From positions 124,001 through 188,000 of the forward strand of contig RSEE01000094.1 of assembly GCA_003971905.1 (NCBI GenBank): 64,000 nucleotides of DNA. Direction: 5' to 3'. A program made the position numbers and the translations under genes. This DNA comes from Moniliella sp. 'wahieum' (taxonomy: Eukaryota). Within the stretch, counting starts at the first letter, position 1. Each line of letters opens with the position of its first letter. Below, piece after piece: positions 1-64,000 of this stretch. Below the pieces are notes generated by a model, which saw only the letters and a program-made list of their open reading frames with translations, was not told the DNA's origin and ran no database searches.

Positions 1-1269
1 CTCAGCTCCCGGTATGCATATGCAGCATGCATGATGCATGCGTCATGCATCAGCTACCCCCTACAGGGAGCGCCACGGGACAGCGCCTGGTCGGACAGCG
101 CACGTTGCACACAGCACGCAGCGCCAGTGTCCGGCGGGGGCACAGTACGCCCACGCTGCTGTCACGCGTCACGTGCCATGTCCAGGCAGGCGCTGGGCAG
201 GCGCCTGCAGCAGCTTCCTCCTCACACTGCCGCGCAGCTGATTTTTGCGCGCCGTAATAATCGTGCAGGCGCAAGCCTGTGCAAGCCTGCAAAATTTACC
301 TTGGCAGCGCTAAGGCTTAGCGTACGGTAACCACATCCATCAGCCCATCAGATCTCCGATCTCTCTCAGATGCCATCTCCGCCCCAACCCCATGCAATAT
401 GCACGCGGCAAGAAGATTGGCCGACCCCAATGGGCACACACTGCCCCCCGCTGCTGCCGCACTCACCGCCTCCGCGTACTCAGCCCGAGTCCCCAGGCAC
501 CCAAGTCCTCCCAAGCCCCACCCGCACGTCATGCGCATGCCATGATAGTCATTAGTCACACGTCACACTGACTTGGTCGTTACGTGATTCCCATCCCAAT
601 GAGCGCCTCTCTCCGCTCCCCAGCATCGTAATTCCAGCAAAGCTAAAAGCCAGCGAGTAATTACGTAAGACTGGTCCCATCCCTTCAACCCTACCTCCGC
701 TGGCCCTGCCCCTTCCCAAAGCACTCTATTTCTTTGCCTTTGCCAAAAGCGCAACCAGTTTGGCGATTCACCGCGGCGGGCTACGAGCCAACCGGCCGGG
801 CCCCATCGGCGTTCTCACACCTACCCCAACTCAGACCGCCAATGAAGCTGGGCAGCAGACACTCTGGTGCCGCCCCCCACTTGTCTCCGGGGACGATTGT
901 AGTGCGAATCATGTGGTGTGGACAGAGGTGAGATCGATGAGCGCGCTCATCTTTTGAGGGTTTTTAACTCTGAACCATCTCTAACGAGATTTTATCGATA
1001 TTCAATCCTCAACTAGTTCTTTCCAGTGGCCAAACATGTTGGTGGTCTTGATGGCATAGTGGTGTCATTTGGGCATCCGGACCAGCGGATACAGGATGGA
1101 CTTTGGTTGTGTGCTATAGATGACTGTCATTTTGCCCGCTAAAAGGCGATGGATACTACTATCAACCACCCCGGCCTGGTACAATAATTTGATTGCCAAA
1201 ACAACAGATTCCCAAACGGTTCCTCACCCAGAGACCAGATGTCCACCAAGACAGCACACGCTTTGCAGG

Positions 1270-2530
1270 TTACCGATACGAGGATGCCATGGCAACACCC
1301 TTGCGCGCCAGGTCAACGAAGCTTGCATTGGTCGATTGGCGGACTCCCAGCTCAATCTCGCGAAAGATCATGCCGCACACGACAGCGAGCATGGTGTCGC
1401 AATGCGGGGCCACTGTGTTCCATCAGAAGATATTTGTGCGATTAGTGCGATCCAACTGGGCGGAAACCAACACGTACCCGTCATATCATAATCATGGCCA
1501 AATAGCTTGGTGAAGTCCGCAAATACTTTTCCATCACTCGACGTGATGCTCCACCCTCTCCAAATCGTCAGCTTAGCCAACAAGTTCACCACCGGACCTT
1601 GTACTTCCGGTCTCTCCTTGTCATCACTGATGCTACTGCTGGATGCGGTACGAGTGGTTGCCCGAGCGAAGACGGAGGACACGGATACCAAATCATCAGA
1701 GACAGCGCGTAGGATCCCGGTTGTTTCGCTCGACTTAGCCGCTTCCTCCTCCTGCCTCGCATCAGACGAGGCAAACGAATTGCGCGCCTTGATAGCAAGA
1801 CGAAGAGGAAAGCCCAACACGCCCTCAATTGTCACCACAGCCTCGCCCGTATCGGGATCAAAGGCGGCCCAAAACCCACGACGGCTGATGGAATAGCGTT
1901 TGCACTCCAGTAAGAGTTTCCCCTCCCTGTCGTACAACATTCGAGTTCGTGACCAGGCCCGTCCACGAGCCCAACGAAACTCAATCTGCTTCGATTTGGA
2001 ATCCTGCCAGACAAAAGGGATCAGCTCCCTCTCGCGAACTCAAATCTCGTCCCGAACCAGAAAGGAAATAGAACGTACAAACGCAACCACTTGAAGATTC
2101 AGACCTGGGTCTGGGCCAATCCGGAGCACGACAGGTAAGTCGTGATTGGCATAGTAAGGGTGTACCCCCATCCCTCTCCCAGCTACAGCCGGAAGAGACA
2201 TGTCTTCCGTCGGGGAAGTACTGGGAATTGGAGCCTTCTGGTCAGGGCTTGGGTCGGAGGCAAGAGCCAAGGCGCTGTCAGGAAGCGCACCGAAACCATC
2301 TTCGTCCTCGGTCGTGTCTCGGTCGGTCGGTTGGCAGGGTTGTCGTAGGGAGGTAGGTCAGCTGCAGAGCCGTAGACCGGCAGCACAGGACTTCCTGTAA
2401 GGCCCTCCTGTATCTCGCGCGCCTTGGCCTTGTTGTCTTGTGCTTCGGGCAAAATCATTGTCGGTGGAGGGATGGCAGAAGGAGGATAAGAACCGAACCG
2501 CATCGCCTCGGCGCGCATCGCAGCCAACAT
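1270..2530 (-). CDS. LURP-one-related (Tubby C-terminal-like/scramblase fold) protein; frameshifted, intron 1413-1477
   Basis: The ORF LYDREGKLLLECKRYSISRRGFWAAFDPDTGEAVVTIEG resembles the LOR family. Removing the intron GTACGT..CTAAT..CAG (1477-1413) gives YDMTVAPHCDTMLAVVCGMIF, which resembles the LOR C-terminal 'Y.vtV.PgvD' motif. Stop TAA is at 1270-1272. The start is uncertain. Confidence 0.6.
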
Positions 2531-3107
2531 GTACGTGGAGTAAATTAAAACTGCTGGAGATTGGTACTTGAAATGTTCAATGAATTGTCGTTCTCGGTCC
2601 GAGATCGGACCTCTCCTCAGGACTATCATAGTGACTAGTGACTCCTCTCCACAGATGTGGACCATCGCAGCTCACGAGCTGATAGCGCCATATATACAAC
2701 TAGTGGATGGAAGAAATACTTCCTGTGTGTGCAAACCCGTGAAAGGGACCCAGGCAATGAGAGGGAGATTAGGCATCAAACGCGTCCAATAAGGGAAACA
2801 AAAGACAAAAAAAGTAGTGCGGACGAAGAGAAAAACGTGGATGATATGTATACAGAGAAGGACAGATGACGGGGTGTGTGTGGACAATGGATGATGGTGA
2901 GATCGTAATAGAGGGGAGGTGGCGTGTTAGCGCAGACCGAGATGTAGATGAAGAGCCATGAGAACGAAAATGGGGGGAACAGCTGTTCATATAAGGGACG
3001 AGAAATGTATATGACAACACACAGTAAGCCGCGCGAATGATGTGCCCGAACGTTCGATAAACGAAAGGGGATGATACTGGGATGAGATCAGTACAACAGT
3101 CACAAGA

Positions 3108-7317: not shown

Positions 7318-7900
7318 GAGGCCCGAGAGGCACTTGAAGTGAAATGCAGGGGTGCTGGATGGCGCCAGGGGCGCGTTGTTGGCGCTGAGGGACGCATGGC
7401 GCGAGGACAGAGTGTAGTGTTGCGAGATGTTTAGCGGGGTAGAGTGAGAGGATGTGGTGGAGGGGGAGGGGAGACTGGGTTGGGTTGGGTATCCCAGCTC
7501 CAATCTCCGACCTCCAGACGAAGCCGACGTCCGGCTTATTTGGGATCACCGATCATTGATCTCTGACTTTCAGGCATGTTGGGTGGACCCCCCTGCCCAC
7601 CATCAGAAACGCTGGGGGTGCACGGTCGGTCATCCGTTACTAGGTTACTCGAAGGGACTAACTACCCACCCGGCGAGAAGCCGCCCGGTGTGGGGCAAAT
7701 GTCAATGTCAAAGCGCACACAGGGGGGATCCTATCACGCGATCACGCATCGTGCATCGGTCCGTCATCGACCAGAGCATCCATCATGCATCATTCATCAT
7801 GCATCATCCACCCCGCACTCTCTCCCCACCGGAACACCAGTCCCCCTAAACGCCGCAATCAGCTGCCCAGTTTCCCTTCTGCCCCCACCACCATCCCACC
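7318..7900. promoter_or_regulatory. Bidirectional promoter between acyl-CoA oxidase and SCP2-thiolase
   Basis: 583 bp separate the divergent ATGs (7317 minus, 7901 plus). The region contains an AAGCCG-N5-CGGCTT inverted repeat (7521-7537) and an ATGCAT-c-ATTCAT-c-ATGCAT array (7785-7804). Confidence 0.6.
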
Positions 7901-10500: not shown

Positions 10501-10887
10501 GTTGCCGTGTCCAGGGAAGAAACCCACGCAAGAAGGAACGGGGGCGGGGGCGCACGAAAAGAGAGGCGTGGAGGGGTGGGGCAGCCCCTTGATGACTGCG
10601 GAGCGGGAAGGAGGGCCGCGGTTGAATTTTGGGCGACCGGCCGCAAGAAGGTGTTAGATCGTAGATCTGGGAATTTGCAGGCCGCTGCTCAATCAAATTA
10701 ATCAGGGGGGCTTGGAGTTTGAAGCTTGAACGTTGAAACCGGGGCCTGCTTGAAATGTTCATCGCCATATCAGCCACCCACCACGTCGGCGCTGAGGGCG
10801 GGCGCAATGCTCACGGGCCGCCTCGTCCGCAGCGCTCCCGCCGCAACCTCTTCCCGCCGCCACCTTCCCCCTCGTTGCGCAGTGGCA

Positions 10888-12698
10888 TGGATCCAGCGGT
10901 GGTGCGTCCCTGGCTGCGCTCGGTCGTCGTCCCTTATGCGCTTGGGACCGTGTCTTTGCCCAGGTCGATGCCGTTCTGCAGCAGCAGCGCGGCCTGCGTG
11001 TCGCGACCGATGTCTACACCTCCGACGATGGCCGCTCCGCCCTCCTCATCCGCCTCGCAGGCACGCTGCCCGTCACCTTCCGTGGCTCGCAGTACAACAT
11101 CCCCATCGTCATCTGGGTTCCCCATGCGTACCCGCGCGAGCCGCCCCTGATCTATGTCGAACCTACGCGCGGCATGGCCGTGCGCCCAGGACACCCCTTT
11201 GTCCAGCTCGACGGCCGCGTTGGGTCCGGCACGGCATGGAAGGCCCAGGCTCCTACTTGCCCGGTGGGAACGCAAGTGGGAAGCATCCAATTTGGTTGAC
11301 TTGCTGGCCGACTTGCAAGAATGTTTTGGTGCTGACCCTCCGGTGTATGCCGAGCCGGCTGCCGCGCCAGTTGCTGCGTCCGCTACAACGTCCCTTCCCC
11401 TGCACCTACGCCCACACTCGCCCACACACAGCCCCGCCGATCCTTCCGGCTCAGTCGCAGATCCAAGCTCCGGCTCCGCCTTTGGCCCCGACTCCAGCTC
11501 CGGCTCCGACTCCGGCCCCGACACAGGGCCCGCCTCGTCCACCCCCAATCCCCGGGCAGCAGCCTTTGCATGCCCCGATCGTTTCAGCCTCCTCCGCCAA
11601 TCTGGCTGGCAGCGGGAGCGCTCCCGTCCCGCCTCCCAAACCCCCCGGCGCTGCACCCATTGCTGTTGATATGACGGGGGGCAGCAATGGAAACGGGTAT
11701 AGATCAAGTCCCTTGCCCGCCACACCCTCCCCTCTCCGCCCTCCCTCACGACAAGCGACGACATATGCCGGCTACGTCCCCCCTGGCTACCCGCTGCCCC
11801 AACCTTATCCTGGGCAGGCCCTTCTGCTGGATGGACACCGCCGCCGCTCCAGTCCAACAACATTTCTGAATCGATGCGGCCTCAGGATCGTCCTGGATTA
11901 CCGCATGGTGCCTCGCTAGCTCATGCTAGACCTACGTCGCTACCTCCACCCGCGCTCCCGCCCCCGCCTCCGTCCGAGGGCCCAGCCCCAGCTGCACCAT
12001 TTCTCTTCCCCTCCCCTCCCTCCCCTTCCCGCTGGTGTGGTCCTCCCCCCGCGCCATTGGCCCCACGTGATCTGATGGACGAGGAGGACCAGCCTGAGGT
12101 GCCCAAACCAGCGCCTGTGCGGCCACCTAACCCCGAGCTGCTGAGGTTGCATGAACAGCTGCATGCCCGGGTGGCCGATCGGGTGAACACCATTTTGGCT
12201 CGTTGGACGAGGAAGCGCGAGGCCTGATGGCCTTGAGCGACGATCTAGATCGCGGCCAGCTGGCCATCGCGGACGAATCTCGTCGGCTGGAGGCGGTGCG
12301 AGACGTGTGTCGTGCGCATGCGGAGCGCATGACCGCTCACAACGAGTTTGCCGCTCGCACCTTGGAGACAGTGCAAACCAAGATTGTGGAACGGCTGGAA
12401 GGCCCCGATGCGGGTGACGACTGGATCATGGCAACCAGCATTCCGGATCAGCAGTACGTTTTTTTCCTTGCTGATGCCGTTCATGTTGGATACTAACGCT
12501 TTGTAACCCTGGAGGTTGATTGACTTGGTCGCCGAGAGCAACGCGATTGAGGACACGATGTACCAGCTTTCACGTGCGTTCAATGCGGAGACAATCACAT
12601 TGGATCACTTCCTCAAGAACGTCCGCATGCTCGCTCGAGATCAGTTCCTCAAACGCGCGTTGGCAATGCGGATTGCAAAGGAAGTGCGAAGTTCGTGA
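10888..12698 (+). CDS. VPS23: ESCRT-I subunit Vps23/TSG101 (UEV domain, Pro-rich linker, coiled coil, Vps23 core); intron 12454-12514
   Basis: N-terminus MDPAVVRPWLR, then VYTSDDGRSALLIRLAGTLPVTFRGSQYNIPIVIWVPHAYPREPPLIYVEPT (UEV domain). The C-terminal QLIDLVAESNAIEDTMYQLSRAFNAETITLDHFLKNVRMLARDQFLKRAL is the steadiness box. Confidence 0.93.
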
Positions 12699-15636: not shown

Positions 15637-17499
15637 GAGAACAGATGCAGGCCCCACCTCGGTTCAGACTCTGGGGGACGGTACCGGTCTTGGGGCCCGT
15701 TCGAAACGCTAGAAAGCTAGGTGTGAGTAGAAAGCCGCCGTGGAGCCACGGAAACGAATGTGGTACGAACCAAGATCATACAGCGAAGACGACGCTAGCG
15801 GCATGCCGCCGAGGGGGACGGCCGGACGAGCGGGCGGGGTCGGGCGCGGGGACTGAGACGGGGAGGAAGCCAAGGGGTGGTGGGGCGGAGCGGAAAGAGA
15901 GCGTGCTGGCGTGCGGCACCTGTGCGGGGAGGGGGTGCGAAGGGCAGACCCTGTGGGCCGTGCACGGTGTTGGTTAGCGCTGGAAGGGAGAAGCGTGAGG
16001 CGAGTAATCTAGTAATCGCTTGGAGGGCAAGCAAGCGGTTTGCTGAGGCTGAGTACTGAGCACGCGTCGTGCTGCGTACTGGTGAGTGTGCGTCCGGAGG
16101 CTGCTATCACATGTCCTGGCCCTTTGCGGTGCCCGTCTAGCAGCCTGTCGACGGGGAGCCCGAGGCCGGAGGGCTCGGTGAGTGCGGGAAGCTTGAAGCG
16201 GGAAGCCTCGCCTGCTGCCAGCCCTATTTTTGGTACCTGCGTCGCCGTTCAGTTGAATACGCTCAACGTGCTCAGATAGTATATGAAACCACCCACGCAC
16301 AGCAGCCCCCTCCCCACCTGCCTGCCCTCTCCTAGAAACGCTAAGCCATCGTCGTAGCACACTGCCCTCGATCTGCCTTCCCCGTCTGAACATCTGACTT
16401 TTGTCAGTACTCCGTTGAGTATCAGCGAGTACTCATAACTCGGAACCTTGTCCTCAGAGAGTTGGCCACCGCATACATATTGCCTCCACGCCTCTCGTTT
16501 GCCACCCGGTGGGGCCATCGTCCTTCTCCCCTCTCCCCACACATCCACCTTGTGCGACGACGATAGCTGCTGCACACTCCGGCATATCCATTGCTCCTGC
16601 CCCGCACAACATGCCCCTTAGGCCTCATGGCCTCATACAATAGACCGCTGCCTCCGGTTTCAGCTCCGTCCGCCTCACGCCCCGCCTCGGTCCCGGACCG
16701 AAGAGCAGGACAACTCGATGACGGCGGGCGGCGGCGGCTTGCCGCCGGCGGGAAGCCCACAGATGCGCGCTTGAGTCGCTGCATACTGCATCTGCCGCAC
16801 TTTGTGTGCCTCGGCCTATGAAGCAGAAACGGACTGGGCGCAGAAGATGACAAAGGGCAAAGTGGATTCACGCGGGGGGTGGGGAGGGGGGGCATCGTCA
16901 GCGCATGGGGTCTTTCAAGAACCAGGACAAGGTTGCTACGTTGTCCCACCTGAGGTTGCCCCATCAAGGCACTGATTGCTCTGTCGAATGATGCACGTGC
17001 CCACGTTTTCTATTGGGGGTTACGTGCATTACATGTTAGCGACGACGTTAGCGTTAGGCGGTGGGGGCGATTCGGTGTGCTTGCCGAGGCAAGATATCAG
17101 CAACGCATCCATGTCATCGTCCGCTTCATCGATGAGATCCTCCATCATCCGATCCTCAAAATACTCTTTAAGTTGTCAACGTGCAGCTCAACTTCGACAT
17201 GAAGATGAGGCGATGATAGTTGCATGAACGATATGGATTCGGACCGTCTATGAGTATGCACACCCAGGTCCACCAGATTGCTTACGGCGTACACACGCCA
17301 ATGGATTGTTCTGTGGCAGATGCGTGAGAGAGGGAGGAATGAGTCTAGGAAAGAAAGACAGGGCGTATCTCTGGTACAGAGAAAGGAAGGGAAGGGAAGG
17401 GATGGGATGGGATGATCGATGAGATGAGATGATCACGAAACCAAACCAAGCATGTCGAATCGGATCAGGTCAATCAGGAGAAGGAAGCGCTTGTAAAGG

Positions 17500-19355
17500 A
17501 GAGGGGGGGTGGGAATCATTAATCATTATCAGCCAGGTGGCCTGCCATCCCATTGTGCCGCCAAGGCAGAGGCAGGCGGCCATGCCGTTGTCGAAACAGG
17601 CTAAGTAGGTCCTCCCGCAACAGGCGCTGGCAGGGCAAGCGGGATGGACGAGGCGGAAGCCAGAGAGTAGCAGCGGTCGCAGACGCAGTCGTAGTCGTAG
17701 TAGGAGACGAGGGTCGGAAGAGAAGCTTGACAGCAGGAGCGACACGCATCACGCGAGCGGAACTGGTGTTGGCCGCCACATAACTCAGTGGTTGGAAGAG
17801 CCAGATCTATTGCCACAGGGGTCAGTTTGGCATTCCAAGCACCGAAGGAGGGCAAGACGTACCTTGGCCTCAGGCCCACTGGTGCCATCTGGGGAAGTAC
17901 CATCGTCAATGAGTTGGACGCGACGCTCGGCGCCTAGGTCGCATGTAGCTGCCAACAGAGCTGCCATGCGGGAGGCAAACGTAGTGGTCACTGCGATACC
18001 TTCACGGGTTCCGGGGACGGAGTAAGAGAAATGTAAGCCCGGCCAAGGTAGCAACGCGCTTCATCGTCCTGTCCTGCGTCTGGTGCGCCTTGTTGTTCAG
18101 CCCGGCCCAGAAAGGCATGACATGCCGCACAGTGTAACAGTGCACCCTGCAGAGAGAGACGAGATCAGCCAATCGTTTCTTCACGACAATGAGAAGGGAA
18201 TGTGTCCAGTGGTAGTGACCCGTGACATGAGACGGGAAGATAAGAGGAAACCCTCCATCTTCGCCCCACGCCCCGCCCACTGACCTAGAGGCGGTAGGTG
18301 TATTCCACTGGCAGAAAGTCTCAACGGCTTGGCGGGCAAAAGCCCCCGGCCATTCAGCCCACTGGATTCTTGGACCACTGTATCGCCCGACCGCGCTGGG
18401 AAGGAGGTGCGGGCAGGCTTCTTATGGGTCCGAGCAGGAGAGGGGGAGAAGAAAAACGTACCTTGGAGCCGGGGAGCCAGCGTACCGAGCCAGGTCGCAA
18501 GTCGGCCACTTTGGGTACCAACCAAAACTCTGACGCAAACACCGTCGTCGAATGGGGCGTGTTCGTCGTAGCATGCACCCCGTCTCGATCGGGATAGAGA
18601 ACTTGCTTGCCTCGCTGGACAGTGCGGTTGATCAATTGATCTTCATGGCACATCCATGCGTCTACCAATTCTTCCCATCCAGCAGGGGAGAGGAAGCAGG
18701 CGCCTGCCTTCCTCGTGCGGCAAGAGTAACGGCGCCTCGCACTTTCCACAGAGGCAATCGGTCAATCGCTTAGGCAGCTCCGCTAGACCCATCATGTCGC
18801 CTTCGTGGGCCTCGGGTGCAGCCCGGCCAGCAGAGGAGTACACGCGATCTTGGCCTGCAAGGGCTCGGCCGCTGTACCTTTGCCACTGAGCGGAATGGAA
18901 AAAGGCTCAGTCTGTCTCACGTGCAGGTCAGTGTGAGCAGGAGGCTGGATAAGGATCGTTTCCTCCTTCTCGGCACCAGCACCAGCACCTGGTGCCAAGA
19001 AAGAAACACAGATCTCAATCGGGCCTTGGGATCCGCCAGCAATACGAGCGGTGGCAGTCAGGGGAGTAGGTCCACCTTCCTGGGCCCAGAGGAGCACAAG
19101 GAGCGTGTGAAGTGGACCTGCCACTCAACGTACACCTCGAACGCAGCAACAGAAGTAAGTGCCGCCTCGGGGATGTGTGGGAGATGTGACGGGAGAAGAA
19201 GAGGAGGCAACATGCCCAGTCAGGGAGGGCGGCTGTTGCGCAGAGCCCAAGGTAGTCGATGGTAAGGCACCTTCCAAGGCGCCAGCTGAGGCCTCAGTGA
19301 CAGACCCAACAGCGGCTGGGCTACACGCTGATGATGCAACCTCCGAGGTATGCAT
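17500..19355 (-). CDS. UBE3D/Ipa1-like HECT_2 (E2-binding ubiquitin ligase) family protein
   Basis: CLCGKCEAPLL followed by LLPLP..GWEELVDAWMCHED matches the family 'LPS..W.E..D.W.CH' motif. N-terminal EVYVEW, later Cys pairs and a C-terminal LP...GW..W segment also fit. Frameshifted. Confidence 0.72.
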
Positions 19356-25163: not shown

Positions 25164-25188
25164 GCAGTTACTAGTTACTAGTTACTGC
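25164..25188. repeat. 7-bp palindromic array GCAGT-t-ACTAGT-t-ACTAGT-t-ACTGC
   Basis: Read directly from the sequence. Confidence 0.9.
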
Positions 25189-27040: not shown

Positions 27041-27082
27041 AGTCACTAGTCACTAGTCACTAGTCACTAGTCACCGGTCACC
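27041..27082. repeat. 7-bp tandem array (ACTAGTC)4 + ACCGGTC
   Basis: ACTAGT at 27045, 27052, 27059 and 27066, then ACCGGT at 27073. Confidence 0.95.
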
Positions 27083-36927: not shown

Positions 36928-37475
36928 GGTGGAGGTGCGGGGGGAGGCGATACGGGGAGACGCAGTGCTGGTGCTGGGCTGGCGTCGTAGCCAGACGCTA
37001 AATGCGCTCAGGCGGAGCCGACGTCGGGTGGGGCCGGCGAGCGCCTGCGATGCATGATCCGTCATCGGTGGCGCAGGGGGCAGCTGCCGGCTGCGGCAAC
37101 CCAAGCGCAGTGACTAGTGAGCGCCTAGTGAGCTAGTCATGCATCATGCATCACATGTCACAGCACATGCGGGGGTGGTGACGCGGTGACGTAAGACGGC
37201 ATGCATTGCACCGAGCCCGAGCAGGTGTCCTCTATCTGGGCTGTCCGATGGAGGCAGATGCGCCAGACGGCAGCGCCACGCAGGTGCTTGTCTTCCACGC
37301 GCCGTCCTGCCGACAAGGCATCCACGCCAGGCAGGCGCCAGCCCAACGCAGCCGAGAGCAGCCCAGCGGCAGCCGCTCGCTCGTCGTTGCTGGTCGCTGC
37401 TGCCTCGCCTGTGTCTTGCACGCCACGCGGGGTCGCCCGCCTCTGCTTGCTGCCCACCCACACTTCCCCTCGCCC

Positions 37476-38832: not shown

Positions 38833-38837
38833 TTCTA

Positions 38838-38857
38838 ACTAGTTACTAGTTACTAGG
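38838..38857. repeat. (ACTAGTT)n array just downstream of the LST8 stop
   Basis: ACTAGT-t-ACTAGT-t-ACTAGG. Confidence 0.85.
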
Positions 38858-42263: not shown

Positions 42264-44915
42264 GTGGGCCGAGGGAGAGGGGCGAGCTGGCGGAGGGGCA
42301 GCAGTCGAGAGCAAAAAAGGGAGGGCGAGACAAGGGGAGCGGCGGTCTGGAAGGGTGGGAATGCGGTGGTGGCAGACAGAGGCGGTGGGTTAGCTAGGTG
42401 GCCGCGCGAAAAACATCGCAACACTAACCGAGGAGCTGACAGGCGAAGGACGTGCACGGAGTACTGGCGTGTGGCTTCCCCAGTGTTGTATAAATTTTCT
42501 GGCTCGGGTGCGCTTTCGCGGTAGGCTTAGCGCTTAGGCTCAGGCGCAGCCCTCGTGCTGAGCCCAGACGCGTGACGCGTGATGGTGCTGACGCACTGAA
42601 CGTACTGATGCACTGATGCCCCCAGGGCGGCTTACCTATCGAGAGCCAGCTCGGTTGATCTCTGTAGGCTCGTAGGCTCAGTTGAGCGCTTAGTGGGAGC
42701 AACAGAGCACGGAGTTGTGTGTACCAATCCACATCGCGGTCCCCTCGATCGGCTTTCTCAGGATCGTGTCGGGCCCCAGCCGAGCGCAGGCGTGCGCAGG
42801 CGCACACCGGGCCACACGAGGCCACAGACGACCCATGTGTTGATCGCTGCCACTCACCGGTCATATTCATCCGTCCATCATCGATCCCATGTCTTCCTCG
42901 TACCAAGAGAGATGCCGATACCCTTTGCCCAACGCCCATCACCCTTTTCAACCGACAGGGCACTGCCCTGCACCAGACAGCCGCTCGTGAGTCGCTACTT
43001 GGCGCTTGGCCCTCCTGCGTATGGCTGGCGCCGTGGGATGGCAAATGGAGGCCCCTGGAAAGCCTGACACCTGCGGGAGGTGGTGCATGGTGAAGTCTGA
43101 GCCTCAGATCCAGAGGCCTGAGGCGGCGGCAAAAAAAGGCATGGCAGACATGGTCTGCGAACACAACATCGACATACACAGCAACTACCGTAAACCGGTT
43201 ACCATACCGGTACCTAGTAACTGGTCACTAGCACTACCGTCCACAGCCACTTGAAACCTGTGGGAGGCAGCCTGGACAAGCCTGGACTTGGACAGCTGTC
43301 TGTATGAGCGCCGGCCTGAGCCGTCTATGGCTTGACGGCCTGACGCGTGACGGATGATCGATGACGGAGCTGGATTTTGAGTCTCACAAAGTATCGTGTG
43401 CACCTGCATGTGGCTGCGCAGCAGGCGCCAGCTCGTCCTTTTCATGTCCCACCCGGGGGACAGGCCGCCACACCTTTCGTACCTGACGTGGACGCGATGT
43501 GTGTTTTGGAATCCGGGGTTCTCGCTCCCACCCGAGAAGGGTTTGGCGTTTGTGGAGGGCGAGCAAAGCACCTCGTTTCCAGGGGACAGGGGCAGCCGCT
43601 GGCAGCTCAGGGGCAGTCTTGCCTGCCCACACATGTGTCAATGTCAACCGGCAACCCGCTCCCCGGGTTCACCGGCACCGGACAGCCCAGCAACCCCGAA
43701 GCTCGGAAGCCAGACCCTTGCCCCACGCCCCCAATATGAGTTCAACAGTTTAACGTTCAATATTCAATGTCAACTCCATACTCAAACATCGGTACTCGAC
43801 GTCCAGCCTTTCAACCCTTCCAGCTGGCGGCGAGATGCTGCTGACGCGATGGGGTACGTACAGCCACCACCGTCGCTTCTACTGCGACAGACAAGGGGTA
43901 TCCGGATGATTTGCTACATCGGTCGTCTTTCAAATTTCATAGTCACTTGTCTAGTCACTAGGTCACTCGACACTAGTCCCTAGCTGCTGCAACCGAGAAC
44001 CGGTAACCAGTAACTGGGTAACTAGCAACCTACCTCCAAGCGAAGTCATCACTAGAGTCCCTCCAAGCTCCAACCTGCTCCAACCACCATGCGTGTGGCT
44101 TAGGTCCAGTTCCTGTTTTTCAAATTGACAGCCTCAACGTACGTACGCTAAACGCCAAACGTCCAACACTGTGGCGTAAGGTGGCTGACGCACGGCTGGC
44201 AGGAAATTTGTACCGAACCAAAGCCCAACAGTGTCTAGTCCACCCACACACTATTAGTGGCTAATGGGTAACCAGTAACTAGTAATGGCCAGCCCACACA
44301 CACCACCTAAACATGTCAATCCACCATCTGCGTCATCGCATCGTCACATGTTCTGGCCTACGATCCTACGACGAGATGACAATTGTTTTTGACGTTTCTT
44401 CTACCAGCCGCAGTACAGAAGACAGGAATAGCTAGTGCTCGAGAGTGCTTTTGCATTTTACTGACAGCTCCTGATCTACCGGTTACCCCCGTCGGTTACG
44501 CGCGCCTCACAACATCAACGTTCAACCAACGTCGATCATCATCGAAAGGAGTGTCTAGCCAGCATTCCAGGATCATACGGCAAGAGTGGATGGGTGTGCA
44601 ACGAATGCATGAAGTTTTATCATCAGCTTAGTTGAAAAGCGTACAAATACAGGTGAATGCGACGGATATATGAGGCACTAAAAGAGGTGGGGGAGGGGAG
44701 GGGAGGGCGGGGGGGGGGCGTAGCAGAGGACCATGGTACCGGTAACCCGGTAGTTTGGTAGAGTCATGGATAGCTTGTGCAGACAGGGGGCAGGCCCAGT
44801 GTTGAAAGAGCGGGGGGGGGGTCCAGTGTTGAAAGGACAGGCAAGGGACACGACTAAGGAGCAGAAACCGAGGCGTCCGACCAAAGGCCTTCAAACCCGA
44901 GCAGGTAGGAACCGT

Positions 44916-46231
44916 TTAGTAGCGGTAGTGGTCCGCCTTGTAAGGCCCGTCAACGTCCAGGTCGAGGTACTTGGCCTGGGCGTCGGTGAGCTTGGTGAGC
45001 TGCACACGCAGCTTGGAAAGGTGCGCCAGGGCAACTTCCTCATCGAGCTTCTTGGGAAGCATGTACACCTCGCCCGCCTTGTACTTGCCGTCAGTGTTGT
45101 TCTTCCACAGCTCAATCTGAGCCAGGGTCTGGTTGCAGAACGAGGCGCTCATGATGAACGAAGGGTGGCCCGTCGCGCAGCCAAGGTTGACCAGACGACC
45201 CTCGGCCAGGAGAATGACATGGCGGCCCGACTTCATCTCGAACCGGTCCACCTGGGGCTTGATGTTGACAACTCCCTTGGCGTTGGCCTTGAGCCAGGCC
45301 ACGTCAATCTCCACGTCAAAGTGACCAATGTTGCAGACAATCGCGTCGTCACGCATCGCCTCAAAGTGACGGCCGACGATAATGTCCCGGTTGCCCGTGT
45401 GGTGGTAACAAAGATGTCGGCGTACGACGCGACATTGTCCATCAGGTCGACCTGGTAACCAGCCATGGCAGCCTGGAGGGCGTTGATGGGGTCAATCTCG
45501 GTAACAATCACACGGCAGCCGTAGCCACGCAGCGACTCGGCGCAGCCCTTGCCCACGTCACCAAAGCCAGCGACAACGGCCGTCTTGCCGCCGAGCATGA
45601 CGTCAGTGGCGCGCTTGATGCCATCCACCAGCGACTCACGGCACCCATAGTAGTTGTCAAACTTGGACTTGGTCACCGAGTCGTTCACATTGATGGCAGG
45701 CAGCTTGAGCTCACCCTTGCGCGAGGCAATGTAGAGGTGGTGAACACCCGTCGTGGTCTCCTCCGAGAGACCCTTAATGTCCTTGAGGAGCTCGGGGTGC
45801 TCGTTGTGCACCTTCCAGGTGAGGTCACCACCATCGTCAAGGATCATGTTGAGGGGCTTGCCCGAGGGGAAAACATCGTTCTTGAGCGTCTGCTCAATGC
45901 ACCAGTTGTACTCCTCCTCCGTTTCGCCCTTCCAGGCGAAGACAGGGATGCCAGCAGCAGCAATCGCAGCCGCAGCGTGGTCCTGGGTAGAGAAGATGTT
46001 GCAGGACGACCAGGCAACTTCAGCACCAAGAGCGACCAGCGTCTCGATCAGGACGGCAGTCTGGATGGTCATGTGGAGGCAGCCAGCCACGCGCGCACCC
46101 TTGAGGGGCTGGCTCGGGCCGTACTTCTCGCGGAGCTGCATCAGGCCAGGCATCTCGCCCTCAGCGATGGTGATCTCCTTGCGCCCGAAGGCGGCAAGGG
46201 AGATGTCGGCGACCTTGAAGTTGGTGGACAT
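44916..46231 (-). CDS. SAH1: S-adenosylhomocysteine hydrolase
   Basis: [117 protein letters not shown]. One 2-nt indel lies at ~45398. Confidence 0.99.
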
Positions 46232-46712
46232 GGCTGTGGTGGGAGGGAGGGAAAGGCAGAGGAGGAATGGGGTGCGTGGTGGGGAGACGAGAGTGCCCGC
46301 GCACGGGACGGGCGGAATATATACGGGGCCTGTTGGCCGGGGCCATGGCGGTTTCGGCGGGAAGAAAAATTGACTAACCGACTGCGGCCACAGGGGCAGT
46401 CTGCTGTGGGTTCCGGGGGGTGGGAGCGTGACAGCGCCCAAGCCGCGCGCTGCCCGTGCACCGTGCACACTGACCCTATGCGCCGCAACCTCCACGTGCA
46501 CACTCGCCCTTTTGGCGTTGAAATTTGAACGGCGATTGTTGAATCTTGCAGATTCTTAGGGGCCATCTTACCTCAGGGCTCAGCAGCACCTGCACCTCCT
46601 TTGGTAACATTTCAGTCCATCCTCCCGCCATGGACGCTTGGACATCTCGCGCCCCCCCCCTCAGTATGCAATCGCCAGCCCACCGACAGGCCTCCGCCAG
46701 TCATCCCTCCCG

Positions 46713-47297: not shown

Positions 47298-48321
47298 TGC
47301 CGCGGCTGCTTTACCAGACAGAGTTCATCTCTTTAGTTTTGACAAGAGCGCGTTCAGATCTCAGACCTGAAATGGGCATGAAGCTCAGTGGGAGGAGAGT
47401 AAGCACTGACGCTCTCCGGTATGGGTGCTTTGGCGGCAAATGTCCCGGTGACGCGAGGATGAACTGATCTGTATATAGCCTTAGTGGTCTCCGATTCGTC
47501 GCTGCCTGATGAGGCGCGCCCTGCACGGCTTCTCGCTCGATGTCCGAACCACATATGAGATCGCATTAATTTGAGCAGGAACGTGAAGCTTGAAGCTTGA
47601 CAGCTTGATCCCTGACCGCGGTGATGGGGCAAGAGAATCACCTTCTCATACACTCGCACGCAGCCAACTGCATCGCTACACTCTGCTTACTCTTGCTGAA
47701 TGGCAAGGCGTTGCAGGTGACCTCGACAGAATGGGGGCAGGCGTTTCTCGTTCGGTCGAAATGCCGCGAGGTGGGAAGTGGAGGACGTGCTGGGGAACAG
47801 TACTGCACACCACAGACAAGGAAAGGAGGCGCTGGTGTCGAAAGAGGCGGGTGGGCTAGAGCATCAGGCTGGCTCGGTAGGCCATCAAGCTTCAAGGCTT
47901 GAAAAGGGCCTGTGGAGGTCCAGCGCAGGGGCTGGCCCGAGCAGCTGGGTGTGGCGATGACGCCGTGTGGGATGGACTGATGGATGGATGGCGCAGGCGA
48001 GCTGCCTCAGGCCGCGGATGCGACCCAAATTAATAAGCCCTACTTTGTGGGGAGGGGTTTCGAACCCTAGCAGACCCTAGCGCTCGCAGCCGTTACGTCA
48101 CCGTTGCTGGCGCCGTGCAGGGGGTGAGCGTGGCCGCTGGGCTCCTGTGCGGGTTCGCTGGGCCGACGCACCAGGGATGCGGGCCGGGGACCGGTGACCG
48201 GTCACGGTGACCAGTGACCCAGGAGAGCCCGGGCAGTCCGCCGATGTCGGGCGGACGCCGCAGCGCAGGCCGTCAGGCAGGCTGCCATCGTTGTTGGGCT
48301 GCGCCGCCACCGCCCCCCAGC

Positions 48322-49892: not shown

Positions 49893-50479
49893 GTGCCACC
49901 ATTTTGTATTCCAAGCAGCTCTCTCTACGTTCCGGCCCAGAGCCTGAATGCAATGCTGCTGCGCCCTTGCCTGTGTTTCCAGCGCCCTATGGGCCCATCA
50001 TGCGCGGGACTCTCCGTTCTTTTCTTCCACTGCTTCCTCCTCGTGCGGTGACACAGCCCACTCCTCCTTTCTCCTCTGTCTTATCATTCGCAGGTCCCTC
50101 GGCCTATCTTCGGATCAGGTACATGTGTCCCTGGCCGCGGATGGTTGATCGTTGGGTTCCCCCATCCATATGTACCCATCCCACAATGTTGCGCGTCCTT
50201 CATTCCGCTTTCGCATCGCACCTACATCGACCCCAAATCCCCATATTCGAATACTGTTCCTTCCAGCTGAAGCTTCCAGCTCTCTCTCAATGATCGGGGT
50301 TTGTATTGATACAGCTTTTATAGCCACAGTGCCGGGTCGCACGCCGCGTAAGTTATAGAAAACGTAGGCACTTTTGTACATCAGGTACTGCCACAGGCCA
50401 CTTGTGTCCACCAACCTTTCTCCCGATGCACACCCAGTACAGGAATGTCGATGATTCCATGAGGGGGGTGGGGCCAATG

Positions 50480-50506
50480 AAGCTTGAAGCTTGAAGCTTG
50501 AAGCTT
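50480..50506. repeat. (AAGCTTG)4 tandem array
   Basis: AAGCTT at 50480, 50487, 50494 and 50501. Confidence 0.95.
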
Positions 50507-52025
50507 GAGGCAGCAAAGGGAAGTTGTCGCGCAAGTGTGTATCTGCAGTCTCACCTGGGTCGCGTACCTATGCCGCGTCCGGGTCATCCCAAGGGGATTG
50601 GGGGAGAGCGTGGTTGGGTCCACACGCTTAGGTATGCACGTTACCCACATTTTAGGAAGCTCTTCCGGGTATGTAATACGCGGTGGGCACTCGTGTGCAC
50701 GTCCCCTCTCCTTCGATCGCAGTGACTAGTGGTCCGGAATCGTGACACGCTCTGTCGGTTGTTGTGACGGTGGGGGCGAAATGTGGGGCCTGTGCCGCAA
50801 AAAGTGTAGTAGGTGAGAAAGCAGGACGAAGACGACGAGGCTAACACGTGGATACGACGTGTCGTGATGCTGACGAGTCATCTAATAGTCACCTTTCCTG
50901 CTGGTTGGATTTGATAAAAGCGGTGCTTGAGAGCTTGAAGCTTCCAAAGCTCCAAGGTCCATAAGGGGGAGCGCGTTAGACGTTAGATCTTAGATCTTAG
51001 ATGCGTTTAATTTGCTCACGATGCCTAGTCGGTAATCGGCAACGGTAATCGATGATCGATGACCGATGATGTCGATGATCGGATCGCCCCTTGCGTCGAT
51101 CCACCGGCAAAATAGGCAAAACAACGCACTCCCGAGAGAGCGGGAAGCGGGTAAGATCGATCTGAGATCTGCGATCGGCCGGTGAGATCGAGATGGGGTA
51201 TGGATTGCTCCCGGGGCGGCATCCGACACGCATCGCGAGCCGAAGGGTCTGCCCAGGGGGCCGAGTTGCGGTGGCGGTGTTGTGACAGACTGTGACTAGG
51301 GACTGGGGCGGATTGCGGTGCGGACGGGTGCTTGGGCGGGTGGCTGGCACCGGCAGCTCCTGTGCGCCCACTCGCCACTAGATACCGACGGCCAGTACCG
51401 CCACCCAGCACCTAGCAGCTGCTGCCCAGCGAGTAGTAACGAAGAGCATGTGGCGACGAAAGCTAGTAGTGACTTGGCGATTGGCGTGCACGGGGCGAGC
51501 GGGGAGCGCGTACCGGTTGCGGTGCGCTGCGTTGCCACGCAGCAGTGGCCCAGCGGCGCCGCTGGCGCATGTCGGCTTACGTAGGCAGCGTTGGGTTGGG
51601 GACGTGGATTGAATATTGACTCGGCGGGATGGCTAGATGGCTGGGCTGCGAGGTGAAATTGAAAGTGCAAGACGGTGGCGCAAAGCCCGCGAAAAAAGGC
51701 ATTGCAAGCGCGGTGCTGGGCTGCACCTCTCGCTCGGTCGTTCGCCGGGCCATTGCTCCTTACGGGGCTCTTTCCTTTCTCTTCTCTTCGTCCCTTCTTG
51801 TCCTTCTCTTCATCTCCGTCTCTTCGTCCCCTTTTCGTCCCTCCTTCTTTTCCCTCCCCTTCTCGTCCCGCCCGCCTCGCTGCCAGGATGCTGTGCGTAC
51901 TCCCCCCCGCCCCGCTGCCTGTCTGCTGACCCGTCTTGCCTTCAGGCGCTCCGCAGCAGCGACGCGTCCTCGCCCGCCGCCACGACAGCACCACCCTCCC
52001 CTCCCCCTTCTCCTCCCACGCCGAC

Positions 52026-59386: not shown

Positions 59387-60747
59387 TGGATCACCTTGTC
59401 GATCATGTGTTTTCTCCGCTCCATAGATCAACTGTTGGTCGAGGCGGTGATTCAAGGGTCACTTGATCCTCCCGCTCATCTCGCCTGTGGCATCGCCCAC
59501 GCCACCTTCTGCACCACCTTCTCCCCAACTGTCTGAACAGATCCCCCCTCGTCCTACCGTCCGGGTCAACTCTGCCGTCGCCTGCGTTTAACAAACCCAC
59601 TCTCTGGTCCCTCTTCTCCTTTCCACTGTCCGACTCTGCCACTGCCCGCCCACCCACTCCTCATTCCCCACTCTCCCCCTTTCCTTTCAGGCAACCGTGT
59701 CATCTTGGCGATCAGAGCGGCAGCCGACCAAGGCGCGACCTTCTTGCGGGTGGTATGCAGCACGTTCTTCCTATGTCGAGAGTGGGAAGGAACGGACTGA
59801 TGCATGGTGGCTGGCGAAAGGAGGGCAGGGCTTCGTCCCCGAGCTGGTCAAGTCGACGTAGGAGGAACAGGTGCCTGCAGTCCGACTGTATCGTCAATGA
59901 GAAGGTATACGAGTATGCACTTGAGACTGCCAGGGGCGGCACGTTGGTCTGGATGCTGGTGTGCTGGCGTGCCGGTTCATGGCAGGACCTTGCTTCCTGT
60001 GGTCTGGGGATCCTGCCAGGACCACAACAAAGGCAAAGAAGAAGATGTGACTCTTCCCCCCGTCTCATTCGCCGCGCATCGAGGTGGACCGACGTCTGTT
60101 GGTGAGTGCCTCACTGCCCCCTACTGAGGACCCGACCATATACCGGACGTGGTCATTGCGGGTACGTGCCTTGTGCTTGGCGCTTGGCGCTTGGCGCTTG
60201 GCGCTTGCGCTTGCGTTTACGTTTGCTTCCCGTCCATCTTCTTCATATTAATCATCTCCCTTTGCCATGCCTAGCCGATGCGATCGTCATCAGGGACAAG
60301 GAAATCCATGAGAAGCCGTTGGACCGGAACGATGCACTACGGAGGATATGCTGATGGACTTGAACGATGGGTCGTATGAGGGGGTGACGGGAATGCGGTT
60401 GTCAACCCCATCCCTGTCAGTCCTGAATTCCATGTCAAGTACGTTAGGAGCTTCAAGGTTGGATGGTCGAGGGAGCTTGCTTTGCTACTTACAGACAACG
60501 AACGAACCCATTCACATGAGCATGGCCGAAAAGGCCAAATTCACCTTTGCTTGCGACCCGTCGGAGCACCTGTTGGCCTATGCCACCTCGGGAAGGAATG
60601 GACAAGGCGGCGCCTTCTCCTCCAAATCCCTGGTGCGCTCTTCATTTCGACCCTCGAGGGCAACTATAGTAACGTGGTGGGATTTCCTTCCATGCCTTCT
60701 TCCGCTTCCTTCACGACTTGTTGGAGAACGATAAGATTGAGCTCTAG
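59387..60747 (+). CDS. Maf-family nucleotide pyrophosphatase (Yor111w/ASMTL-N-like), heavily disrupted, possible pseudogene; intron 60102-60274
   Basis: Across frames: LPSPAFNK, NRVILA..SGS..RRDLL, GFVPELVKST*EE, VYEYALETA, ADAIVIRDKEIHEKP..LMDLN..GVTG, LEGNYSNVVGFP, HAFFRFLHDLLENDKIEL-stop. The start is uncertain. Confidence 0.78.
60175..60215. repeat. (GCTTGGC)4 heptamer repeat inside the Maf intron
   Basis: gcttggcgcttggcgcttggcgcttggcgcttgcgcttgcg. Confidence 0.9.
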
Positions 60748-61791: not shown

Positions 61792-62853
61792 GGGGGGAGC
61801 AGATGCGGGGCTGCGGGAGGAGGTTAGGCGGGGGGACACACTTCACTATTACTTCTGCCGAGAGCCAGAACAGCACCAGCGGACCTTCGCACCAGCCAGC
61901 CAGCAGCCCGTTCCGCCGCTCGGCTCGCCGGTCCATTCCGCCTCTGATGGCAAATGTTCACTTTCCCAGGTTAATCGAACAGCCAGGCAGGTCAGCCCAT
62001 GCGCCTTGGTAGCATCCAGCCCACGCCATCTATGCCTTCCCCAACGAAAGCAGACCGTCGGTTGACTTGCGCGTACGCACCCATTGCATGGCCGGTGTCC
62101 CCAGCCTCGAAGATGCAACCGCCAGTGCAGAAGGCAAACACCTTGTCCAGCTGGCGCAACACACCTTCCTTGCGGCGCGGCGATGCTTCAGTGCTCTCGC
62201 CACACCGCGCCCAGCGGCCGAGACGGCCTCATTAATCATTGCGCTCTCGGTGGTGTCGAGGGGAACAGATACGGCGTGTGGCTTTGTCCCCATGCCCTGC
62301 ATTCTCTCCTGCAGTGTGCCCTCACTAGTCACTGGCCCTGTACCTAGTCCGGCCTCCGATGTAGATGCCCAAGTCTGGCTCTAACCCATCACCTTCTCAG
62401 AGATGAGTCTCATCCTTCTGCCCGTCTGGCTCCCTAGGCCAACATGCGTGGGCTGGAAGCGCGGGCGTGGCTGAAGCAGCTGAGCCTCCGCCCCAAAGGC
62501 GCGAGTGTTGGGGTTGGGGCCGGGGGGCCTGAATATTGAATGAAGCTCAAACCCCAGAAGGGCCGACTTGCACGGGGGGGGCGAGCGCGCGAACCGCTGA
62601 CGGGCAGCGGTGACCGGTGAGGCTGGAGGGAGGCCGGCCTGAGACCCAGTGCCATCGTCGTGAAATGTCCCAGTTGGGTACCGCTGGGCTGGATAGTTAG
62701 AGTGGGGTCTTGGGTCTGCGGGCCCAGTGACTATGCCGGTCGTCTGTCCGCAAGCCAGTGACTTGCTCGGGGAGCGCCAGCACGCCCCCGCCTCTGCCCA
62801 GGAACCCCCTTCTCACCACCGCCAGTCCATCTTCACCGCCGCCTCCAGGCACC

Positions 62854-64000
62854 ATGGCCTCCACCGCGTCGCCACGCCTCGACTCGTCTTCCAGAGCTTC
62901 TGACGAATCCGCAGCCGTGGCCGTCGCTAGCGTCCGCACGCCGTCCCCAATCCCTCATCACCGCCCGCCCGTCAGCCCGTCCAGGCCGTGGCATCGCTGC
63001 CTCGACTGTGCGGCCCTCCCAATCTCTTCCGCCTCCCCATCCCGTACAGTACGCAAGAGCCTGATGGGGACGGTGAGCCATTGAGCACTGTACTTGCCAC
63101 CCGTGTGGTGCATTTCTTGGCGTCTTTGTCGCCTGGAGGTTCCCCAGCACATGGACTCACTTATTGCATACCTTTCCTCTTGGGGTGGCACCGACAAGGC
63201 CCTGATGATGTCCCAGTACGGGGCGCGCCTTCTGGTTGCCCTTTCTGCCATCCAGCATCGGGCACGAGCGTGGGTCTTTGCTGGATCGTCATCCTATCTT
63301 CCCTATGGCGGATCTTCCACTGCTCGTCGTTTTGCTGCCCTGAGCGATGCGTGTGCCGATGCCCGTACGCTTTTCCGCGTGTGGAGTGTTCTGCCAATAA
63401 TTCGCTGGGTTCGTTTCTCTTCTTTGCGGTGACCGGTGACCACTCTCTAACATACGTTCCGTTCCAGATGATCCAAATCGAGCACATCCAGCCACGAACA
63501 AGACTGCTATCCAACGTCGAGCGCCTGCAAGGCTGGTCGCTCCTCTTTTGCCTCCCGCTTGAGTTTCTTGCTTACTTGGGAGCCCATTCGATCGTGCCCA
63601 TGGGCCGCGCAGTACATCGCCGTCTCGCGCTTCTCTCGGCCCGTTTTTGGGTGGCATACCTTGTGCTACAATGCCTACTGATGGAGGAGAACCGACTTTG
63701 TCGGCTGCAAGCGCGGGCCTTGGAACGAACACGTGGGCATCCCATACCGCTCCCTTCCCTTTCCCGTCGGTCCAGTAGTGCTGGCGCGTCCCAGGTACCG
63801 CTCTCCAAAGCCACACCTTACACCTCGCATGGTCGCGTGGAGACCAAGCCACCACGGTTGCATGGCTCGGCCAAGAAAGCGGCCCAGCGGGCAGCTCTTC
63901 GACCGGAGATGTTTGAAGAGTATGAGAATGATCCCAAGGCGGCCGAGCGGGCGGTGACAAGGGCGCTGTGGGACGAGCTGGACGACAAGAAGCATGACAT
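62854..64000 (+). CDS. PEX11: Peroxisomal membrane protein of the PEX11 family (truncated by window end); intron 63409-63467
   Basis: YLSSWGGTDKALMMSQYGARLL..LSDACADARTLFRVWSVLPIIRW/MIQIE..VERLQGWSLLFCLPLEFLAYLG. Confidence 0.78.

Follow-up and report, generated by a model that had tools for sequence, protein, structure and literature searches.

The stretch analysed here comprises 64,000 nucleotides of contig RSEE01000094.1 of Moniliella sp. 'wahieum' (positions 124,001 to 188,000; hereafter the window). It is nuclear DNA of about 60% G+C with eukaryotic genes, in which a short element, formed by two T-N-A triplets on either side of a 4-bp palindrome, recurs about once per kb. An adenosylhomocysteinase gene is located on the minus strand at 45233-46555, and its translated product shares 83-86% identity with homologues of Malassezia, Jaminaea, Tilletiaria, Sympodiomycopsis and Tilletia, and 97-99% identity with proteins encoded on short public contigs. 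These identities place the source among the basidiomycetes of the smut-yeast group (Ustilaginomycotina). A sulfate permease with a cyclic-nucleotide-binding part is encoded at 28313-31157 on the same strand, while an acyl-CoA oxidase fragment and the mitochondrial ribosomal protein S25 are further window genes recognised by comparison against Pfam. Of the 125 open frames in the window that are 150 amino acids or longer, 21 were scanned against Pfam; seven matched a family, none of them a transposase. No tRNA genes are present in the window. Coding-like segments, delimited by a rough, self-trained codon-usage map, make up 44% of the window.

A first-pass annotation of this DNA had drawn attention to arrays with a 7-bp period, in which a palindromic hexamer of the form A....T is followed by a single spacer base, and had proposed the grammar (A-N4-T-N)n for them. 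All 40 of the hexamer positions it cited carry the named hexamer, with the ranges 27045-27071 and 50480-50506 each expanded to four positions. The window contains 30 exact period-7 arrays of at least two copies, and the unit of 19 of these is a palindromic hexamer plus one nucleotide (18 of the A....T form and one GTGCAC). By comparison, 100 Markov-3 and 100 Markov-5 simulations yielded 3.7-5.0 arrays, of which 0.4-0.6 were dyad-symmetric (maximum three). Pairs of A....T palindromic hexamers at a spacing of 7 number 17 with identical and 6 with different hexamers, against 0-2 at the other spacings from 1 to 13. At spacing 7 only the A....T flank is enriched (T....A 1, C....G 0, G....C 1+2). 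Both checks proposed in the annotation, the Markov null and the comparison with other spacings and flanking pairs, thus speak for the pattern. Periods of 5, 8 and 9 show no excess of symmetric arrays in the Markov comparison. Period 6 yields 13 symmetric arrays where 2.4 are expected, but these make up 13/60 of all arrays of that period, a share close to the null of about 15%. In-phase neighbours that are different palindromes sharing the spacer base form six pairs, and the ACCGGT/ACTAGT and AACGTT/AATATT pairs could also be derived by a CpG-to-TpA change on both strands. The arrays sit in the gaps between coding-like segments, in keeping with the placement outside exons described earlier.

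Nearly every array is bounded by T-N-A, and the 10-mer consisting of T-N-A, a 4-bp palindrome and a second T-N-A with the same N was therefore counted. It gives 62 matches in 48 runs, against 1.6 (Markov-1 and Markov-3) to 5.1 (Markov-5) expected, while the control triplets give 2 against 1.4 for A-N-T, 12 against 6.6 for C-N-G and 5 against 7.8 for G-N-C. The C-N-G class is thus mildly enriched, as it is among 10-bp palindromes (14 against 6.4), which may reflect a weaker second target or an effect of composition. The palindromic tetramers between the triplets, here termed fillers, occur singly in 40 runs and in groups of two, three, four and five in 5, 1, 1 and 1 runs, respectively, a fall-off in size as for single events. 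The arrays are the tail of this run-size distribution, and would be places where the mark left by a single event was made several times. As such, the earlier picture of arrays alone, although the arrays are real, was incomplete, most instances being single elements of 10-12 nt that it did not list. Fifteen of the 16 palindromic tetramers are used as fillers, with CTAG (12), AGCT (9), TGCA (8) and TCGA (5) at the head of the list and TATA absent, and N is G in 22 runs, C in 17, T in six and A in three.

The build of the element is best seen in a canonical 12-mer, TNAxy·y'x'·TNAxy, where x and y are any bases and x' and y' their complements. It is found 69 times when both strands are counted, against 0.2-0.9 expected, and 17 of these elements have sharp ends on both sides. 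Each consists of a 5-nt direct repeat with a 2-nt joint, and in every canonical element the joint is reverse-complementary to the two bases that close the left copy. With T-N-A-x-y, y'-x' and T-N-A-x-y in this order, the palindromic hexamer A-x-y-y'-x'-T and the period of 7 arise automatically. The element is a short direct repeat with sharp ends, whose two copies are linked by the inverted complement of the neighbouring repeat end. The period and the palindromic hexamers of the proposed grammar therefore stand, but its constant part is the repeated T-N-A and not the hexamer, and the pattern is better written as T-N-A-x-y-y'-x'-T-N-A-x-y.

The boundaries of the elements were also determined from all maximal period-7 runs, classed by their matched positions with no assumption about T-N-A. 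A....T-symmetric runs with 4, 5, 6, 7 and 8 matched positions number 11, 26, 13, 4 and 5 (expected 3.2, 0.8, 0.3, 0.1 and 0.1), with a further nine beyond, giving 68 elements with at least four matched positions where about 4.5 are expected. The mode lies at five matched positions, a 12-nt run of less than two copies, and 50 of the 68 elements have fewer than seven matched positions and hence less than two full copies. Seventeen of the 26 five-match runs start at the T of T-N-A (9) or 2 nt earlier (8), the two phases being mirror images of one 12-mer. Single elements are extended by at least 2 nt on at least one side in 34 of 40 cases, most commonly on one side only, with eight each of the (0,2) and (2,0) forms, while non-symmetric period-7 runs are near background in the window.

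These boundaries bear directly on the possibility that the elements are ordinary microsatellites, 7-bp units expanding by slippage via single-strand hairpins. The arrays have between 2 and 4.9 copies and end in partial ones, degenerate period-7 copies stand beside several of them, and spacer bases are uniform in 104 of the 131 ACTAGT arrays in other contigs (among the matches listed). All of this is in line with such a process, and slippage probably lengthens arrays once they have been seeded. As a source of the pattern, however, it appears very improbable. The commonest form, with five matched positions, has less than two copies, and only 19 arrays reach two. The run starts are confined largely to two mirror phases, and the 17 12-mers sharp on both sides have phase-specific ends. 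Perfectly palindromic even-period units, for which better folding would be expected, are not enriched in the window, only the A....T class is enriched among the symmetric arrays (18:1:0:0), and the non-palindromic period-7 runs show no excess to match. The earlier argument that slippage alone is insufficient is borne out by these results.

Several departures from the canonical form add to this picture. Elements in which the two N differ number 15 against 3.9 expected, with complementary N in ten and other N in five, the reverse of the outcome of random substitution. Perfect 10-bp palindromes of the form T-N-A-xyy'x'-T-N'-A are a minor variant, and among all 10-bp palindromes this T-N-A class is the sole strongly enriched one (10 against 1.75 expected); TCATCGATGA at 17126-17135 is one of them, and the other nine start at 19287, 24864, 26046, 27115, 27723, 28135, 28153, 38836 and 48195. 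Five-nucleotide repeats with a 2-nt inverted filler lacking T-N-A occur at about 2-3 times expectation. Among them is (GCTTGGC)x4.7 at 60175-60207, the longest period-7 array without a palindromic hexamer, which fits a 5-nt repeat TTGGC + GC + TTGGC, GC being its own complement. In the immediate flanks, GGCC or GGCCA lies within 6 nt of eight of the 48 runs, where about two are expected by hand arithmetic (elements at 21301, 43341, 44276, 47885, 50478, 62229, 62322 and 62530). The four bases ahead of the T read G, G/C, C and C/A in the 17 sharp 12-mers that can be oriented, and 16 of these are followed by G or C.

Elements avoid coding-like DNA: six of the 48 runs lie in coding-like segments, whereas about 21 would be expected by hand arithmetic on the rough codon-usage map if placement ignored coding. 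Local density varies, with nine runs in the 24001-28000 bin and 13 in the 40-48 kb stretch. The region from 23900 to 27300 comprises 3.4 kb nearly without coding signal, in which degenerate period-7 tracts are also seen (for example 24091-24110, 24386-24402 and 24870-24892). An assembly or base-calling artefact would not discriminate coding from non-coding DNA in this way, and the presence of decayed copies and CpG-to-TpA derivatives among the elements argues against it as well, so that it is highly improbable.

Many elements lie 50-300 nt from gene starts or between divergent genes, as might be expected of functional cis-elements, either arrays of half-sites for an oligomeric protein or three-frame stop-codon modules. 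The constant T-N-A is consistent with both. On one strand it reads TGA or TAA, repetition every 7 nt carries it through all three frames, and only the A....T class provides a stop at each repeat. Position near genes nevertheless says little, because nearly all non-coding DNA of a compact genome is close to a gene. There is, moreover, no conserved word beyond T-N-A, most elements are single, and identical neighbours dominate (17 against 6 different), which points to duplication rather than selection for a word. Unbiased births followed by selection would predict hundreds of neutral non-palindromic 7-bp duplications, whereas only about six in excess are seen. We therefore regard a regulatory or stop-codon function as the origin of the pattern as very unlikely. 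The first of the three options raised in the first-pass annotation, binding arrays for one protein, fares poorly on the same grounds: almost every palindromic tetramer is used, 40 of the 48 runs are single, and neighbouring units are identical. The filler invariably mirrors the neighbouring repeat end in inverted form, and all but one of the 16 tetramers are represented, so that the palindromy was made by a process and not read by a protein.

Canonical 12-mers are located as follows (coordinates in brackets; strand given for oriented elements). TCATC-GA-TCATC is found on the minus strand at 17413-17422 (12-mer 17411-17422) and again at 43353-43364, where it abuts the plus-strand element TGACG-CG-TGACG (43341-43352), itself preceded by GGCC. 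TCATT-AA-TCATT occurs twice on the plus strand (21301-21312 and 62229-62240), in both cases with GGCC before it. TTACT-AG-TTACT is present on the minus strand at 26666-26675 (12-mer 26664-26675) and at 44274-44285, where TGGCCA adjoins, while TCACT-AG-TCACT lies on the minus strand at 37111-37120 (12-mer 37109-37120) and on the plus strand at 62322-62333, followed by GGCC. TCAAG-CT-TCAAG is similarly found on both strands (minus, 39430-39439, 12-mer 39428-39439; plus, 47885-47896, with GGCCA before). Further 12-mers are TGAAA-TT-TGAAA (43928-43939, minus), TCAAC-GT-TCAAC (44515-44526, plus), TCAGA-TC-TCAGA (47354-47365, plus), TCAAT-AT-TCAAT (51608-51619, minus) and TGAAT-AT-TGAAT (62530-62541, plus, with GGCC before).

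Runs with several fillers include the longest array, the five-filler run TCA-(CTAG-TCA)x4-CCGG-TCA at 27043-27080, and the four-filler run TGA-(AGCT-TGA)x4 at 50478-50508, which has sharp T-N-A ends on both sides and lies 191 nt downstream of a plus-strand gene. A three-filler run on the plus strand, TCA-TGCA-TCA-TGCA-TCA-CATG-TCA (37137-37160), has divergent genes on either side, as does the double element with two different fillers, TGA-AGCT-TGA-ACGT-TGA (10720-10736). The other doubles are TTA-CTAG-TTA-CTAG-TTA (25168-25184; exact (AGTTACT)x3 at 25166-25186), TGA-TGCA-TGA-TGCA-TGA (25348-25364; exact array 25347-25367), TGA-AGCT-TGA-AGCT-TGA (47584-47600; sharp T-N-A ends on both sides) and TTA-GATC-TTA-GATC-TTA (50983-50999). 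Several elements with one filler are located inside exact arrays. TGA-CTAG-TGA (2632-2641, array 2629-2643) lies between two minus-strand coding-like segments and is likely to sit in an intron. TCA-TTAA-TCA (17516-17525, array 17514-17528), TGA-GTAC-TGA (25150-25159, array 25147-25161), TTA-CTAG-TTA (38843-38852, array 38838-38856) and TGA-CCGG-TGA (63430-63439, array 63427-63441) are of the same kind. So are TGA-CGCG-TGA (42573-42582, array 42567-42582, 178 nt upstream of a minus-strand gene) and TGA-TCGA-TGA (51053-51062, array 51048-51062, with degenerate copies onward to 51081). A TCA-TGCA-TCA at 20930-20939 forms part of the exact 14-mer (CATCATG)x2 at 20928-20941. The exact array (AGCGCTC)x2 at 27520-27533 has a left flank without a complete T-N-A, and the unit GTGCAC+C at 46454-46468 is the sole exact period-7 palindromic array outside the A....T class.

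Among the remaining singles, TCA-TGCA-TCA recurs at 43-52, 7783-7792 and, 14 nt past the latter, 7797-7806. TGA-GTAC-TGA is found at 16050-16059 and, with a 3-nt right extension on the plus strand, at 24853-24862. TTA-TCGA-TTA (24871-24880, plus) also has a 3-nt right extension and is followed by degenerate period-7 copies, while TGA-CGCG-TGA (34200-34209, minus, upstream of a minus-strand gene) and TGA-CCGG-TGA (62611-62620, minus) carry 3-nt left extensions. TTA-CATG-TTA (17029-17038), TAA-TCGA-TAA (25038-25047) and TCA-CCGG-TCA (42854-42863) are sharp 10-mers. Further singles are TCA-CGCG-TCA (162-171), TGA-GGCC-TGA (25312-25321, plus), TTA-GCGC-TTA (42527-42536), TCA-ATAT-TCA (43757-43766, which AACGTT adjoins in phase) and TGA-AATT-TGA (46519-46528), located upstream of the adenosylhomocysteinase gene.

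Among repeats of other kinds, Tandem Repeats Finder identified a 25-nt G-rich run at 36381-36405, a GGGGA-based G-rich run of about 30 nt at 44689-44718, and a 100-nt CT-rich tract with 14/28-nt periodicity at 51769-51873. GCTCCG-type hexamer repeats are found at 11466-11532 (Tandem Repeats Finder: 11467-11520 with period 6, 11466-11522 with period 30), with a related copy 26 kb off at 37602-37636; both lie inside coding-like segments of the rough map and are probably low-complexity coding repeats. The 64-kb window contains no dispersed repeat family and no larger repeat family around the arrays, and no terminal-inverted-repeat pairs that lie 20-4000 bp apart with T-N-A-x-y or T-N-A at their flanks were found in it.

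The pattern was also searched for in other sequences. (ACTAGTN)x3 is present at 28 loci in 2.9 million viral contigs, compared with more than 163 for a composition-matched non-palindromic control, 54 for the form with period 6 and 9 for that with period 8. Viral contigs thus show no general preference for palindromic period-7 arrays, a further point against slippage. In metagenome contigs (ACTAGTN)x3 was found at no fewer than 122 loci. Seven loci with at least two other palindromic arrays (L004, L005, L009, L025, L060, L063 and L121) were set aside, L005 being a second cut of the L004 contig, which left a comparison set of 577 kb. Among the matches listed for this set, 11 of 241 other period-7 arrays are palindromic, at or below chance. 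In L004, L025, L063 and L060, by contrast with this set, a palindromic hexamer plus one nucleotide forms 26/35, 7/11, 29/58 and 63/96 of the period-7 arrays, respectively, with all flank classes represented (among the matches listed). These four contigs have 37-50% G+C, show only odd periods and are almost without perfectly palindromic units at periods 6 and 8. They are dominated by true long arrays without a 12-mer peak, and were therefore treated as a separate phenomenon. No Pfam matches were obtained for the open frames of the array-rich metagenome contigs, and a protein-atlas comparison of L004 gave a weak eukaryote/ascomycete lead, on which basis this contig may be eukaryotic.

A second option raised in the first-pass annotation, that the arrays are hairpin or cruciform elements, fits in that they can fold, with a 5-bp stem, a T-N-A triloop and modest energies of -3 to -9 kcal/mol. 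The (AGTTACT)x3 array, extended at either end by three bases that pair with each other, makes a perfect hairpin of 27 nt at 25163-25189 (-8.4 kcal/mol; none of 200 shuffles as good). Four of eight arrays, however, fold no better than their shuffles, and folding is thus a property of the arrays that falls short of accounting for them.

Folding is central to a further explanation, an insertion during replication or repair in which no transposon takes part. A displaced 5' flap of five nucleotides, T-N-A-x-y, would template two bases, be religated as a 7-nt extrahelical mini-hairpin and be fixed as a +7 insertion at the next replication. This model is economical, as the inserted y'x'-TNA-xy has exactly a 2-bp stem and a 3-nt loop, every array folds with a T-N-A triloop, and the length (7 = 2+3+2), the palindromy and a loop-specific T-N-A would follow from one structure. 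It is consistent with the lack of a transposon in the window and with a weak strand asymmetry, as 22 of the oriented elements have a pyrimidine for N and nine a purine (p = 0.03). Also in its favour, template switching has been published for yeast flap-processing and RNase H2 mutants (PMC5677150 and PMC3820800). We know of no precedent for ligation at a stem-loop junction, or for the T-N-A rule, and this counts against the model. A general replication error should also be widespread, whereas the 577 kb of other contigs lack the palindromic preference, and the 10-mer occurs in them at 0.086 per kb (among the matches listed) against 0.75 per kb in the window; why other genomes lack the signature is left unexplained. 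Hairpins of +5 and +9 are likewise not seen, with six T-N-A repeats with a 1-bp stem and none with a 3-bp stem. We consider a flap-based origin unlikely, though far less so than slippage or a regulatory function.

The remaining option of the first-pass annotation, the footprint of a fold-back or template-switch process specific to this lineage, fits best, given the 5-nt direct repeat and the 2-nt inverted copy of the adjacent end. We tentatively interpret the pattern as a mutational scar and not a code, namely a 5-bp target duplication with two P-type nucleotides added via a hairpin end, the agent of which is deduced from its product. Each element would have added seven nucleotides net (+7) at a site that previously carried T-N-A-x-y once. 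Fill-in of a staggered break would give the 5-bp duplication, and the two P-type nucleotides would stem from an end that became a covalently closed hairpin and was opened 2 nt from the tip, for example at transposon excision. Since such a scar would restore the T-N-A-x-y target, a further event or replication slippage could add another 7 nt, which would produce identical units, uniform spacers and occasional in-phase different palindromes with the same spacer base. A hairpin opened further off, 5 nt from the tip, may yield the perfect 10-bp palindrome with complementary N. Selection against 7-bp frameshifts would keep the scars out of exons. The agent may be a transposon family preferring T-N-A targets or an endogenous nuclease. 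It is possible, although rather doubtful, that this lineage possesses a T-N-A break activity in the form of a new or domesticated transposase or nuclease, which cuts with a 5-nt stagger, passes one end through a hairpin and continuously writes 7-nt mini-hairpin insertions.

Hairpin-forming chemistry is shared by the hAT, Transib and MULE cut-and-paste transposons and by V(D)J recombination, and MULE insertions duplicate about 9 bp of target. At V(D)J coding joints, P nucleotides are palindromic additions that arise when a hairpin is opened off its tip. The 2-nt palindromic addition of the window elements would be of this kind, but V(D)J recombination is a somatic process of the vertebrate immune system, whereas the scars are germline and fungal. 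PIF/Harbinger elements duplicate a 3-bp TWA target, and the window elements resemble them in the T-N-A-type triplet repeated on both sides, two arrays and four singles ending exactly at T-N-A. They differ from them in their N, for which 39 of the 48 runs have G or C rather than A or T, and in a repeat that extends at least 2 nt beyond T-N-A in 34 of 40 singles.

Excision of Ac/Ds in Candida albicans provides a closer parallel. In PMC5873905, all footprints are described as short deletions or palindromic P-nucleotide insertions from hairpin resolution, the duplicated target being retained, and two footprints account for 53 of 128 events. MULE transposition is described as resembling that of hAT and Transib (PMC5499845). 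The footprints of hAT elements (Ac/Ds in yeasts and plants) and of MULE share with the window elements the target duplicate on both sides, P nucleotides derived from the inverted flank and a small number of dominant products. Both marks of hairpin excision are present here, a direct duplication of the target that is retained (69 canonical elements against 0.2-0.9) and junction nucleotides copied from the inverted flank. The likeness to hAT is limited in that hAT duplicates 8 bp, whereas the window elements have a 5-nt repeat with T-N-A at one end and essentially one product, occur about once per kb and are accompanied by no element in the window. As of 2005, no eukaryotic DNA-transposon superfamily other than Transib was known to make 5-bp duplications; it has symmetric targets rich in G+C (CASTG, CAWTG, CGGCG), and soybean rust was then its sole fungal record (PMC1131882). 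Transib and RAG-type systems share with the window elements the 5-bp duplication and, according to the same paper, the hairpins expected on flanking DNA.

Several observations weigh against the proposed scar. In contrast to the symmetric, GC-rich Transib target just cited, the repeat T-N-A-x-y is asymmetric, with x and y free and T-N-A off centre; a symmetric transposase should give a symmetric target, and here T-N-A is found at one end of the 5-nt repeat. The arrays at 47584-47600 and 50478-50508 and four singles stop precisely with T-N-A at either end, which 3 + 4 fits better than 5 + 2. In six or seven cases the element is an exact 14-mer, or longer, and has the odd-palindrome phase. The plain +5 form, without filler, is found seven times for T-N-A pentamers, and the form with a one-base filler two or three times. 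One product dominates, whereas end-joining footprints are usually varied, and a density of about one per kb would need a very active agent. The 64-kb window contains no transposon and no intact insertion bounded by the same duplication, and the insertion is something that we infer from the form of the scar.

Other candidates were considered and discarded. By hand check, five of 13 two-copy arrays are compatible with a 7-bp staggered cut placed symmetrically on the odd palindrome y'x'TNAxy, about 3.9 being expected by chance, and the (2,2) form is seen in only one of 40 singles. Derivation of the filler from transposon ends would, with 15 different fillers, call for many families, and topoisomerase II-type cleavage at A/NNNN/T would on reasoning alone give +4 and not +7 after fill-in of a 4-nt overhang. 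Generic 13-bp inverted repeats that are not also tandem number 32 at spacer 1 (18.7 expected), an enrichment no greater than at spacers 0, 2 and 3, which also speaks against hairpin-assisted slippage. The 'palindromic microsatellites' of Fusarium mitochondria are (A)n-(T)n structures and unrelated (PMC7218506). A full-text search of the literature brought up no account of palindromic scars with T-N-A at their flanks, nor of arrays whose unit is a palindromic hexamer followed by one base.

If the elements are scars, about one site per kb of non-coding DNA records one precise transaction, a 5-bp duplication with two inverted bases at T-N-A, and this would provide a sequence rule for hunting the responsible transposase, nuclease or repair defect. 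Short palindromic tandem repeats could then be born without slippage, and promoters and introns would be steadily supplied with 7-bp indels and with DNA prone to form hairpins. The palindromic hexamers, strongly enriched here, would be by-products of mutation and not binding sites, a caution for the use of motif finders. Should a T-N-A break activity exist in this lineage, it would insert into promoters, untranslated regions and introns and give birth to heptamer microsatellites. As a germline insertion signature governed by a defined sequence rule it would be new, and the scars would record the past activity of the enzyme.

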